The notes beneath the pieces were generated by a model. The model was not told the origin of the DNA, made no database searches, and was given only the letters and a program-made list of their open reading frames with translations. This document shows, piece after piece, positions 27,317 through 53,076 of a stretch of DNA of 64,000 nt. The stretch covers positions 1,920,001 to 1,984,000 of the forward strand of contig OZ250172.1 of NCBI GenBank assembly GCA_965237905.1, given 5' to 3'. The stretch's first letter is position 1. Every line of letters starts with the position of its first letter. The translations under genes were made by a program, and so were the position numbers. This stretch comes from Nitrospinaceae bacterium. Its GTDB lineage: Bacteria; Nitrospinota; Nitrospinia; Nitrospinales; Nitrospinaceae.

Positions 27317-27355
27317 TTTAACCACAGATGAACACAGATAAACACCGATGAAACC
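27317..27355 (+). repeat. Solo copy of the CACAGAT repeat (family A)
   Basis: TTTAACCACAGATGAACACAGATAAACACCGATGAAACC; 38/39 identical to 40761..40799. Confidence 0.9.
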
Positions 27356-40760: not shown

Positions 40761-40799
40761 TTTAACCACAGATGAACACAGATAGACACCGATGAAACC
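40761..40799 (+). repeat. Solo copy of the CACAGAT repeat (family A)
   Basis: TTTAACCACAGATGAACACAGATAGACACCGATGAAACC. Confidence 0.9.
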
Positions 40800-50223: not shown

Positions 50224-50666
50224 GCCGCCGTCTCCGGTTCAATATTGTCGGGCAGTCCCGATACAAATACTTGGATCTCGTCCCGCACCCGCCGGTAATG
50301 GGACAATGCTTCATCTTCCGTCGCGGCTCCCTGTGCCAGTTTCGGTGGGTCGTCGAATCCCACATGCACCACGCGCGTTTTGCCGGGGAACACCGGGCAG
50401 GTCTCGTCAGCGTGACCGCACACGGTGACCACATAGTCGAATGGCACGTACATCACGTCATCGACGTGCTTGGACGTGTGTTTAGAAATATCGATGCCCG
50501 CTTCATCCATGACTTTGATGGCGCGCGTGTTCATCCCGTGCGGATTGATACCCGCCGAATGCGGTTCGATCACGTCGCCCTTCAACGCCTGCGCCCAGCC
50601 CTCCGCCATCTGGCTCCGGCACGAATTCCCCGTACATAAAAACAATATTTTGAGCTTATCAGCCAT
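50220..50666 (-). CDS. arsC: Thioredoxin-coupled arsenate reductase (LMW-PTP fold)
   Basis: CTGNSCRSQMAE, VC..ADETCP, DDP. Confidence 0.9.
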   Translation of the reverse strand: MADKLKILFLCTGNSCRSQMAEGWAQALKGDVIEPHSAGINPHGMNTRAIKVMDEAGIDISKHTSKHVDDVMYVPFDYVVTVCGHADETCPVFPGKTRVVHVGFDDPPKLAQGAATEDEALSHYRRVRDEIQVFVSGLPDNIEPETAA

Positions 50667-50870
50667 GACCTATCAAGTGTAACATAAGCCTCCAGAAGGC
50701 GGTTTGCCGCTTGATTTTTGCTATATTTTCGCCTATGATAAGCGCAATTGAATCGACCCTGAATCAGGTGGGTAACTGCGGAGTCCCAGCGACCCCAATG
50801 TCCGCCGTCCGCGCAGGACTCGCCTATGATGGGCCGACAATTCTAGCAACCCATTTATAGGCGGAGGACT

Positions 50871-51467
50871 ATGTATCTGACCAAACGCCAGAAGGAGATT
50901 TACCAGTTTCTCAAGGAGCATATCCAGTCGATGGGCTACGCGCCGAGCATCATGGAGATCTGCGCGAAGTTCAACCTGTCGTCACCGGCCACGGTGCACA
51001 AGCACCTCAGCCATATCGAGGAGAAAGGGCTCATCCGCCGCGAGCAGAACCTGAGCCGCGCCATCGAATTGGTGGAAGAGACAGCGGCGGCCCTGCCGGA
51101 GTTTCAACTGCTCGGACACATCATGGCGGGTAAACCGATCGAGGTGATCGAGGCGCGCGAGATGATGTCGCTCATGCCCGACCCGTCGGGTAAGGACATC
51201 TTCGTGCTGAAGGTCAAGGGTCAGTCGATGATCGACGACCATATCCAGGACGGTGATTACGTTATCGTTGAACGGCGCGACCAGGCGGAAAACGGCGAGA
51301 CCGTTGTTGCTCTGCTTAATAACGAATCGGCCACACTCAAACGCTTTTACCGGGAGAAGGATCACATCCGCCTGCAACCCGCCAATGCGGATATGGAACC
51401 CATCATTGTGAAAGAAGGTGACTTCAAAATCCAGGGCGTGGTCATCGGCGTCCTCCGAAAATTCTAA
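50871..51467 (+). CDS. lexA: SOS repressor LexA
   Basis: wHTH (LTKRQ..PSIMEI..SPATV), Ala-Gly site AGKP, GQSM Ser, TLKR Lys. Confidence 0.95.
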   Translation: MYLTKRQKEIYQFLKEHIQSMGYAPSIMEICAKFNLSSPATVHKHLSHIEEKGLIRREQNLSRAIELVEETAAALPEFQLLGHIMAGKPIEVIEAREMMSLMPDPSGKDIFVLKVKGQSMIDDHIQDGDYVIVERRDQAENGETVVALLNNESATLKRFYREKDHIRLQPANADMEPIIVKEGDFKIQGVVIGVLRKF

Positions 51468-51475
51468 ACCATTTA

Positions 51476-51888
51476 ATTAACCACAGATGAACACAGATGC
51501 ACACAGATAAGGTCACGGAATCAATCATCAGTTGCGGTATGAAGGTGAGCAACACTTTGGATGCGGGTTTTTTGGAAAAGGTTTATGAAAACGCATTGGT
51601 TTTGGAATTGAATAAGGCTGGGTTAAAAGCGGAGCAACAAAAGAAAATCGCAGTCATGTATGAAGGTACGGTGGTTGGCGATTACTTTGCAGATGTTTTA
51701 GTCAATGATCAGGTCATAATTGAAGTGAAAGCACTAAAGGCAATTGATGAATCCCATCAAGCCCAACTTTTAAATTATCTGAAAGCGACACAAATGCGAG
51801 TGGGATTGATTCTCAATTTCGGAACGTCACGCATGGGCATCAAAAGAATGGTTTTATGATTTCCCATCTGTGTTCATCTGTGGTTAAT
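51476..51888. mobile_element. Candidate element: GxxExxY gene bounded by perfect 24-bp inverted repeats
   Basis: ATTAACCACAGATGAACACAGATG (51476-51499) and CATCTGTGTTCATCTGTGGTTAAT (51865-51888); mobility is inferred. Confidence 0.6.
51497..51859 (+). CDS. GxxExxY protein (PD-(D/E)XK nuclease-like)
   Basis: GFLEKVY, ADVLV..IIEVKA, AQLLNYLKAT, GLILNFG. Confidence 0.93.
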   Translation: MHTDKVTESIISCGMKVSNTLDAGFLEKVYENALVLELNKAGLKAEQQKKIAVMYEGTVVGDYFADVLVNDQVIIEVKALKAIDESHQAQLLNYLKATQMRVGLILNFGTSRMGIKRMVL

Positions 51889-51900
51889 AGGGTTTGATTA

Positions 51901-53076
51901 ATGGGGTTTATGGTTAGAAATATTTTACATATCGACATGGACGCGTTTTTTGTTTCGGTGGAACAGGTACGCGATCCGTCCCTCAAAGGCAAGCCGGTGA
52001 TCGTCGGTGGCGATCCGGACGGAGGACGCGGCGTGGTCGCGGCCGCATCCTATGAAGCGCGCAAGTATGGCATCCATTCCGCGATGCCCGTTACCCGCGC
52101 CAAACGGTTGTGTCCTCATGCCATCTTCCTGCGTGGGACGCATGGACTCTACAGCGAATTTTCGGCGCGCATCTTCGCCATCCTCGATCGCTACTCGCCG
52201 CTGGTAGAACCGATGTCCCTCGACGAGGCGTACGTCGACTTGACCGGGTGCGAGCGCCTGCACGGTCCCATCACCGAAACGGCGGTGCGGATGCATGACG
52301 AGATCAAAAACCAGGTGGGTATCAATGCTTCGGTCGGCATGGCGGCCAACAAGCTGATGGCGAAGATCGCCTCCGGAATGTCGAAGCCCGACGGACTCCT
52401 GCGCATCCTGCCGGGCCACGAGGCGGCGTTCCTGGCGCCGCTTTCTATCGGGCGCATTCCGGGCATCGGACCCAAAAGCGTTGAGGAGTTCAAGCGCATG
52501 GGCATTCATACCGTGCGCGATCTTTCAGCACTTCCGCTGGAGTTACTGGAGGAGGCACATGGCGAATGGGGGCACCGTCTTTATGAAAAAGCGCGCGGCA
52601 TCAGTCATTCGCCGGTGATGAAGCGCGACGACACCCGCTCGATCAGTCGCGAGACGACGCTGGACGAGGACTCAACCGACCCGGCGTTTCTGGAATCGAC
52701 GCTCAGCTGGCTGGTGGAGAAGGCGGCGTCGCAACTGCGCGAGGAAGGCCTCCGCGCCCGGTGCGTGTCGCTGAAACTACGCGACTCGAATTTCAAGACG
52801 GTCACCCGCTCGCACACGTTGAACGAAGCCGCTTGCGAAGACCACGTCATCTTTGATACGGTAGCAGGCTTGTTCCGCAAATTGTTCACGCAAAAGACGC
52901 GCGTGCGGTTGGTCGGCGTGGCGCTCACGTCGCTCACCTCCGGCACGTCGCCGCAGATGGAGTTGTTCGAAAACCTAGACGCCGAGCAGTGGCAGAAACT
53001 GTATCAGGGCATCGACCGCATCCGCGACAAATACGGTTTCCGTTCCATCTTAAGAGGATCGAGCGTTATCAATTAA
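51901..53076 (+). CDS. dinB: DNA polymerase IV
   Basis: HIDMDAFFVSVE, AASYEAR, SLDEAY; start may be 51910. Confidence 0.95.
   Translation: MGFMVRNILHIDMDAFFVSVEQVRDPSLKGKPVIVGGDPDGGRGVVAAASYEARKYGIHSAMPVTRAKRLCPHAIFLRGTHGLYSEFSARIFAILDRYSPLVEPMSLDEAYVDLTGCERLHGPITETAVRMHDEIKNQVGINASVGMAANKLMAKIASGMSKPDGLLRILPGHEAAFLAPLSIGRIPGIGPKSVEEFKRMGIHTVRDLSALPLELLEEAHGEWGHRLYEKARGISHSPVMKRDDTRSISRETTLDEDSTDPAFLESTLSWLVEKAASQLREEGLRARCVSLKLRDSNFKTVTRSHTLNEAACEDHVIFDTVAGLFRKLFTQKTRVRLVGVALTSLTSGTSPQMELFENLDAEQWQKLYQGIDRIRDKYGFRSILRGSSVIN

Follow-up and report, generated by a model that had tools for sequence, protein, structure and literature searches.

GxxExxY genes and their flanking repeat arrays: a likely nuclease-repeat system with an old resident copy between lexA and dinB

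Introduction

Two described systems in which a bacterial gene is partnered with dispersed repeats come closest to the locus analyzed here, a GxxExxY gene enclosed by inverted repeat arms between lexA and dinB. The first is the Ssn/NTS (SRM) system, in which a small GIY-YIG nuclease acts site-specifically on single-stranded DNA and has cognate repeats, as described in the accessible text of PMC11893778. As far as that text goes, the two are alike in having a small single-domain nuclease gene with a repeat on both sides and further gene-less, dispersed copies of the repeat. Both also occur across phyla, with repeat variants that pair with protein variants and no known joining chemistry. They differ in the enzyme, which is GIY-YIG there and a predicted PD-(D/E)XK here, and in the repeats: each NTS is described in the same text as a hairpin, whereas a GxxExxY arm consists of 10-nt words arrayed in direct orientation and has only the opposite arm as its pairing partner. 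The main text of PMC11893778 contains neither "GxxExxY" nor "PDDEXK".

The second is the REPIN-RAYT system. Judging from the accessible text of 10.1101/2021.07.10.451892, it shares with our cassette the conserved inverted arms around a variable spacer, the extragenic position and the multiple copies, as well as a single gene per word type, which at lexA-dinB stays at a fixed site and appears to be inherited with its neighbours. Both are rare on plasmids and not found in phages; GxxExxY homologs occurred on 8/72,556 plasmid records and in 0/50,697 phage records, and no relatives were found in viral contigs. In contrast to RAYTs, the GxxExxY protein belongs to PF13366 and is without HUH/tyrosine chemistry, its arms are direct 10-nt arrays and not short palindromes, and its gene lies inside one arm pair with the start codon in the arm. 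Moreover, near-identical GxxExxY cassettes are found at different sites elsewhere (5/20 pairs), whereas the accessible text of the same source describes RAYTs as non-jumping.

The nearest solved folds are those of Cas4, lambda exonuclease and AddAB (RecB-like), and the D, ExK and QxxxY residues are invariant; unlike Cas4, GxxExxY is only 120 aa long, with one cysteine and no CRISPR context. Unlike insertion sequences with terminal inverted repeats and TTAA-specific transposons, the cassette has neither a target duplication nor a transposase. The query protein is a member of the GxxExxY/PDDEXK_3 family (TIGR04256, PF13366). In the accessible part of PMC3424549 the function of PF13366 is listed as "Unknown", with multiple transfers, and the GxxExxY passage in the accessible part of 10.1101/2021.01.26.428298 deals with a gene that a different tool had named cas4. 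A literature search, with most subscription papers and supplements outside its reach, returned no description of a pairing between GxxExxY genes and repeats. The best reading is that the cassette would function in the manner of Ssn/NTS or RAYT/REPIN, though with another enzyme; enzyme and repeat shape set it apart from both. New here are the history of the site and the refutation of a TTAA target duplication.

Results

The window, a 64,000-nt stretch of a Nitrospinaceae genome (G000), carries the cassette within the lexA-dinB spacer, co-directional with both host genes and with its arm head starting 14 nt behind the lexA stop codon (Table 1). The original prediction, made from the same DNA, had described a 120-aa GxxExxY ORF with intact D..ExK residues, bracketed by perfect 24-bp inverted repeats, more AT-rich than lexA and dinB and lacking a transposase, and had treated gene and arms as a unit. 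Our analysis bears out this description. The arms (51476-51499 and 51865-51888) are complementary at 24/24 nt (100%), with 365 nt between them, and TTAA does stand at the outer end of each (51477-80 and 51884-87). Rather than a simple 24-bp terminal repeat, each proved to be an array of 10-nt units, with three units in the left arm and two in the right. In G010, the other carrier of the same family (f1), which we used for comparison, the right arm has three words. The start codon, at 51497, falls within the left arm, which encodes M-H-T-D; in the query's clade the arm likewise contains the start codon. When the strand was folded, the two arms paired (z -4.6, DNA parameters). The GC content of the gene is 0.40, versus 0.556 for lexA and 0.595 for dinB, and its GC3 is 0.44, versus 0.76 and 0.75. 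Allowing up to 3 mismatches, the arm 19-mer matched 6 times in the window, with 0.01 matches expected by chance.

Table 1. Features of the lexA-dinB locus and related loci (bare coordinates are positions in the window)
Feature	Location	Strand	Remarks
lexA, upstream host gene	50871..51467	+	TIGR00498, 204.6 bits vs cut-off 110.95
Left arm: AATTAAC head and three CACAGAT words at 51482, 51492, 51502	51475..51509	+	
GxxExxY gene, 120 aa, predicted PD-(D/E)XK nuclease, Cas4/lambda-exonuclease-like fold	51497..51859	+	
Right arm, inverted: head and two CACAGAT words	51865..51888	-	
dinB-like DNA polymerase IV, downstream host gene	51910..53076	+	NF002677, 342.8 bits vs cut-off 256; start set from relatives
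Solo arm without gene, TTAAC head and three words	27318..27349	+	Same repeat family as cassette arms
Solo arm without gene, TTAAC head and three words	40762..40793	+	Same repeat family; stop codon 13 nt before
Promoter-like motif (TTGA-TT ... TATGAT) overlapping TT(C/T)G-N7-TTCG direct repeat, upstream of lexA	50711..50739	+	Predicted LexA operator
Gene-less arm pairs nesting several other repeat families	G000:C1:749719-749974, 753084-753350, 2543900-2544145, 2587342-2587595, 2823195-2823390		
Second GxxExxY paralog, 47% identity, inverted CAGGAT arms	G000:C1:590656-591012	-	Same site in G010
Cargo ORF, 197 aa, inside arms, downstream of GxxExxY gene	L208:1560-2153 (G033)	-	

An ORF scan places the dinB start at 51901, whereas relatives use an ATG matching 51910. 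The 26-nt lexA-dinB remainder that had been calculated for a locus without the cassette is arithmetically right for the ATG at 51901. The right end of the cassette shows a 12-nt imperfect direct duplication (11/12; 51884-51895 and 51898-51909), absent from G010, which created this extra ATG. Upstream of lexA, the TTCG-N7-TTCG direct repeat that overlaps the promoter (50711-50739) is conserved across most of the order and is a candidate LexA box for the group; the combined motif was seen by eye in most relatives compared and not in family f3. Scanning the genome with LexA operator patterns gave 11 and 5 matches, among which, besides lexA, there were no clear SOS genes. The lexA leader (50740-50870) contains a GC-rich insert that is missing in several relatives and variable in others, with no Rfam match, and no Rfam match was found anywhere at 50600-52000.

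The protein scored 143 bits against TIGR04256 (cut-off, 35) and 137.3 bits against PF13366 (cut-off, 22). With regard to a transposase, only PF13366 passed its cut-off in the protein, and no transposase fold was found. D66, E76, K78, Q90 and Y94 are invariant in 60/60 aligned homologs; we take D...ExK and Q90xxxY94 to be the nuclease motifs of PD-(D/E)XK and Cas4-type enzymes. A structure model built from the 60-sequence alignment reached a pLDDT of 95.9, and its closest solved folds in Foldseek were Cas4 SSO0001 (E 5e-4, TM 0.60) and then lambda exonuclease. In a wide structure search (VIA), SSO0001 (Z 8.4, rmsd 3.7, 99 aligned) was tied with BpuSI and others. A sequence search for a solved relative found none (best E 0.2). 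We predict the protein to be a hydrolytic PD-(D/E)XK nuclease with a Cas4/lambda-exonuclease-like fold, the fold match itself being modest and showing no function. Cas4 proper has four cysteines for an iron-sulphur cluster. With its single cysteine, and with a score of 16.8 bits against the Cas_Cas4 profile (below the cut-off of 22.7), the GxxExxY protein appears to lack such a cluster and not to be Cas4 proper.

To place the cassette in its family, we collected 140 distinct homologs, 133 of them with enough flank. At a threshold of our own setting (inverted-match score of at least 14; match +1, mismatch -2), inverted arms were present around 98/133 homologs, versus 1/249 shifted controls, while 35/133 fell below the threshold. 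In an added metagenome set (80 homologs, 61 scored) the corresponding counts were 46/61 and 0/82. Across many phyla, several GxxExxY clades are each bracketed by a word of their own. Mapped on the protein tree, word class changed 21 times, compared with 50.8 times after shuffling (five word classes and 14 unclassed rows), the tree being a quick one of 120 columns with 65/137 branches open and a sample biased to the query's clade. Such clustering is also expected from simple linkage alone. Both the enrichment for flanking inverted repeats and the covariation of repeat word with protein clade had been anticipated in the original prediction.

Among 20 homolog pairs of at least 90% identity, compared by tblastx, 14 share their flank (some of these may be one organism represented twice) and 5 have unrelated flanks on both sides; the last pair was testable on one side only. 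By eye, the likeness between near-identical cassettes stops a few bases outside the arm heads. As judged from these flanks, near-identical cassettes at unrelated sites show relocation in other lineages. Position relative to host genes was counted by ORF heuristics in 70 cassettes with long flanks, shared sites not being merged: in 42/70 the left head had a co-directional stop codon no more than 30 nt away (mirror control, 14/70), and in 44/70 the right head had a co-directional start at that distance or less (mirror, 12). A general link between GxxExxY and SOS genes was considered and rejected, since lexA or dinB neighbours were found in only 3/79 and 2/80 homolog loci; three named records in this tally, which were not counted separately, may duplicate genomes already included. 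Acidobacteria-labelled and metagenome records (L061, L064 and L307) contain cassettes with 67-71% identity to the query, at one further intra-operon site that looks shared.

CACAGAT-type arrays are numerous in the genome of the window. We counted 37, of which 35 lie away from the GxxExxY gene at lexA-dinB, compared with 0 in a reversed-sequence control, and 27/37 start with TTAAC. These gene-less copies fit the analogy with RAYT/REP pairs drawn in the original prediction. Five gene-less facing pairs among the 37 arrays enclose mosaics of other repeats. Two such sites were compared in 6 genomes: arms come and go, and the interior differs in every relative. In G008 both sites lack an arm and have the A/T-rich flank, which ends in AATT; this suggests that TTAA may be the junction of flank and arm. 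The CAGGAT word of the second GxxExxY paralog (Table 1) forms 26 arrays in the same genome. Another word, CACAGAG/CGCAAAG, forms 14 arrays there, though it is carried by neither of the two GxxExxY genes. A search of this genome for Y1 transposases (RAYT/IS200; PF01797) gave no match, while the control was positive in 6/14.

Across the order, the array pattern was present in 57/102 genomes. The median number of array matches was 11 in carriers (7 genomes, own arms subtracted) versus 1 in non-carriers (95 genomes; p 0.005, with kinship ignored). At least 10 matches were nevertheless found in 15/95 genomes without a lexA-dinB cassette, and the carrier G060 had zero besides its own arms. A search for TIGR04256/GxxExxY found no match in two array-rich genomes, G020 (one contig, 96% complete, 35 array matches) and G002 (97% complete, 51 array matches). 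This is the chief finding against the strict dependence of repeat on gene; recent gene loss or incomplete assembly could explain it.

The history of the lexA-dinB site was followed by scoring the spacers in all 74 lexA loci returned by an order-wide search of 102 genomes, with dinB in reach in 69. The full cassette is present in 7/74, namely, in G000 and G010 of family f1 and in G033, G060, G074, G080 and G105 of family f2, and the best seven protein matches in 120 genomes of the phylum (68-100% identity) all lie between lexA and dinB. The G080 gene has an in-frame TGA. G033 and G105 hold extra cargo inside the arms: the G033 ORF (Table 1) matched no family above cut-off, and G105 has a related stretch that is shorter, with a deletion. 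Twelve of the 67 non-carriers matched a carrier spacer by blastn, through 2 gene fragments (the 5' end in G039 and the 3' end in G049), 4 left stubs and 6 right stubs; a motif scan of non-carriers flagged four further right stubs and missed two of those found by blastn. Within the genus of the window (8 genomes) there are 2 full cassettes, 4 right stubs, 1 left stub and 1 locus without a trace. Spacers of at most 40 nt occurred in 21/69 loci, 4 with a left-arm stub, and none aligns as a one-TTAA allele, the relatives being too diverged for a base-precise call.

Between G000 and G010, the gene has a dS of 0.64 and a dN of 0.060, compared with a dS of 0.52 for both lexA and dinB; its dN/dS of about 0.09 indicates purifying selection. 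Between the two families its dN is about 0.21, like that of lexA. The left arm is identical in G000 and G010 for 37 nt from its start, 22 of them non-coding, while 43% of synonymous sites differ. The host tree was not rejected for the gene (p-AU 0.13), and a single origin of the seven lexA-site copies was neither rejected nor shown (p-AU 0.46); conceivably, an arm-like stub at lexA-dinB was targeted repeatedly. For G033 and G105, a gene dS of 0.80 versus 2.2 for lexA, together with the shared cargo, is no more than suggestive of a lateral swap of the cassette, given that the host topology was not rejected. Contigs of the best-covered sequencing run, perhaps the very source of the window, contained no joint skipping the cassette, although contigs drop rare variants. 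In another run, lexA and dinB are joined by contigs that span the cassette with unknown letters, which gives no information beyond the spacer scores. The cassette is an old resident at lexA-dinB that has mostly been lost piecemeal and has diverged in step with lexA and dinB. The perfect match of its arms is thus no sign of recent arrival.

This history lends no support to a recent insertion with a clean empty site, and TTAA as the possible target duplication of the original prediction fails as well. Stubs and fragments persist in non-carriers, and the gene is no younger than its neighbours by dS. Both heads could be placed in 55/87 cassettes of the CACAGAT word class, and TTAA was found at both ends in 3/55. 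Direct repeats of 3-5 nt at the cassette ends were at shuffle level for every offset from 0 to 4. In 44/55 cassettes the two arms matched at their outermost two bases in inverted orientation, versus 20.6 when shuffled. The one excess of direct matches, in 2-mers (7 vs 0.7), we attribute to the AT, itself self-complementary, that some heads contain. At lexA-dinB itself, the cassettes of relatives end in GAAAC, TGCAC or ATAGC. A TTAA target duplication with recent insertion is contradicted by the scarcity of double TTAA, the inverted flank match, the varied ends at the same site and dS.

Discussion

Our preferred explanation, on which we put even weight for and against, is that the cassette is a gene-bearing member of a nuclease-repeat family, whose predicted nuclease would recognise its own 10-nt arrays and which would be spread or maintained by cutting and host repair. 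This is favoured by the arms around homologs, the clustering of words with clades, the separate words of the paralogs and the conservation of arm and gene relative to G010. The 5/20 close pairs with unrelated flanks, the frequent placement just behind a co-directional stop codon, the turnover of arms and interiors, the cargo and the higher number of arrays in carriers point the same way, as do the lack of a RAYT/IS200 match in G000, the Cas4/lambda-exonuclease-like fold and the Ssn/NTS precedent. The array-rich genomes without the gene, the lack of extra arrays in G060, linkage and the quick tree, the modest fold match, the 35/133 sub-threshold homologs and the lack of a cassette-skipping joint in the best-covered run weaken it.

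A hydrolytic nuclease forms no covalent link with DNA and cannot join DNA, and for this reason cutting and repair fits better than transposition. The cassette, apparently without a promoter of its own, would be transcribed with lexA under the predicted operator and hence come under DNA-damage control. Several protomers may bind the words, which are spaced by about one helical turn, on duplex DNA or on a single-stranded foldback stem. The predicted PD-(D/E)XK nuclease would then cut at or inside the arm and, being hydrolytic, would not rejoin strands by itself; host recombination would repair the break from another arm elsewhere, copying its interior. At lexA-dinB the cassette has been lost mostly piecemeal, with the stubs and fragments as its remains. 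Cutting and repair from another arm would explain why there are solo arms, differing interiors, captured cargo, rare moves of whole cassettes and no target duplication.

The gene might instead be a passenger, an ancient cargo with some other function, and the arms be moved by host recombination or by an enzyme acting in trans. The persistence of arrays in G020 and G002 and the enclosure of other repeats and another ORF by the arms agree with this, and linkage alone suffices for the clustering of words with clades. However, several words each bracket their own clade across many phyla, the start codon lies inside the arm in the query's clade, no Y1 transposase was found in G000, and carriers have more arrays, all of which makes a mere passenger unlikely. 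We consider it quite improbable that the gene is a domesticated SOS accessory, a nuclease kept for the host under DNA damage, for example, to resolve foldbacks at dispersed arms or to restrict incoming single-stranded DNA, with the arms as operators or relics. All 7 matches of at least 68% identity in 120 phylum genomes do lie at lexA-dinB, the gene is under purifying selection, the host tree is not rejected, and SsnA modulates transformation according to the accessible text of PMC11893778; but the full cassette occupies only 7/74 lexA loci, one with an in-frame stop, and SOS neighbours are scarce around homologs in general. An SOS accessory role is in any case compatible with the nuclease-repeat explanation.

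Two other accounts concern the arms themselves. They could act in RNA, as a long stem in the operon transcript from which the cassette is cut out or stabilised like an intervening sequence, making the insertion harmless to dinB. Such a role would suit the co-directional, intra-operon placement, the pairing of the arms in the folded strand and the inverted match of their outer bases, yet 27/37 G000 arrays lie outside facing pairs within 600 nt (with the 5 gene-less pairs set aside) and 25 are solo, a stem does not need a 10-nt periodic word, and Rfam gave no match; we regard it as very unlikely. That the cassette is a recent cut-and-paste element, with its 24-bp arms as terminal inverted repeats and TTAA as target duplication, is hardly credible: the perfect 24-nt match, the TTAA at both ends, the AT-rich interior and the TTAAC start of most G000 arrays invite it, but double TTAA is rare, direct 3-5 nt duplications are at chance at all offsets tried, dS exceeds that of both neighbours, the same site is occupied in two families with stubs and fragments in non-carriers, and there is no transposase fold.

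It is likely that GxxExxY cassettes form a widespread nuclease-plus-repeat system, one that would give a large family its first testable DNA target. For this widespread family, listed as of unknown function, the putative cognate substrate can be read off the gene's own flanks and differs by clade, so that the Ssn assays could be applied to test its function directly; the G000 paralogs with different words (CACAGAT and CAGGAT) provide a built-in specificity control, and the lexA-dinB locus adds a site history across an order. If true, dispersed repeats of bacteria would have a third enzyme chemistry as partner, after HUH and GIY-YIG, and no strand-joining enzyme would be needed for repeats to spread. 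A bolder idea, which we offer tentatively and with some doubt, is that these cassettes constitute a new class of autonomous mobile element of minimal size. Having neither transposase nor recombinase, its Cas4-like nuclease of 120 aa would read helically phased arrays, land behind stop codons to borrow host transcription, promote its own homing and also drive the gene-less arm pairs through which other repeats and cargo are shuffled. Activity of the copy at lexA-dinB would then coincide with the SOS response and its abundant single-stranded DNA and RecA, and nature would offer, in this family, a collection of small nucleases that each read a word of their own.

G000 also carries two DUF559 genes (G000:C1:2957452-2957760 and 2708248-2708562), each adjoining C-rich/G-rich hairpin repeats. 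The DUF559-type hairpin repeat has 196 matches in this genome, versus 40 in the control, and the genes and hairpins are possibly another nuclease-repeat pair.
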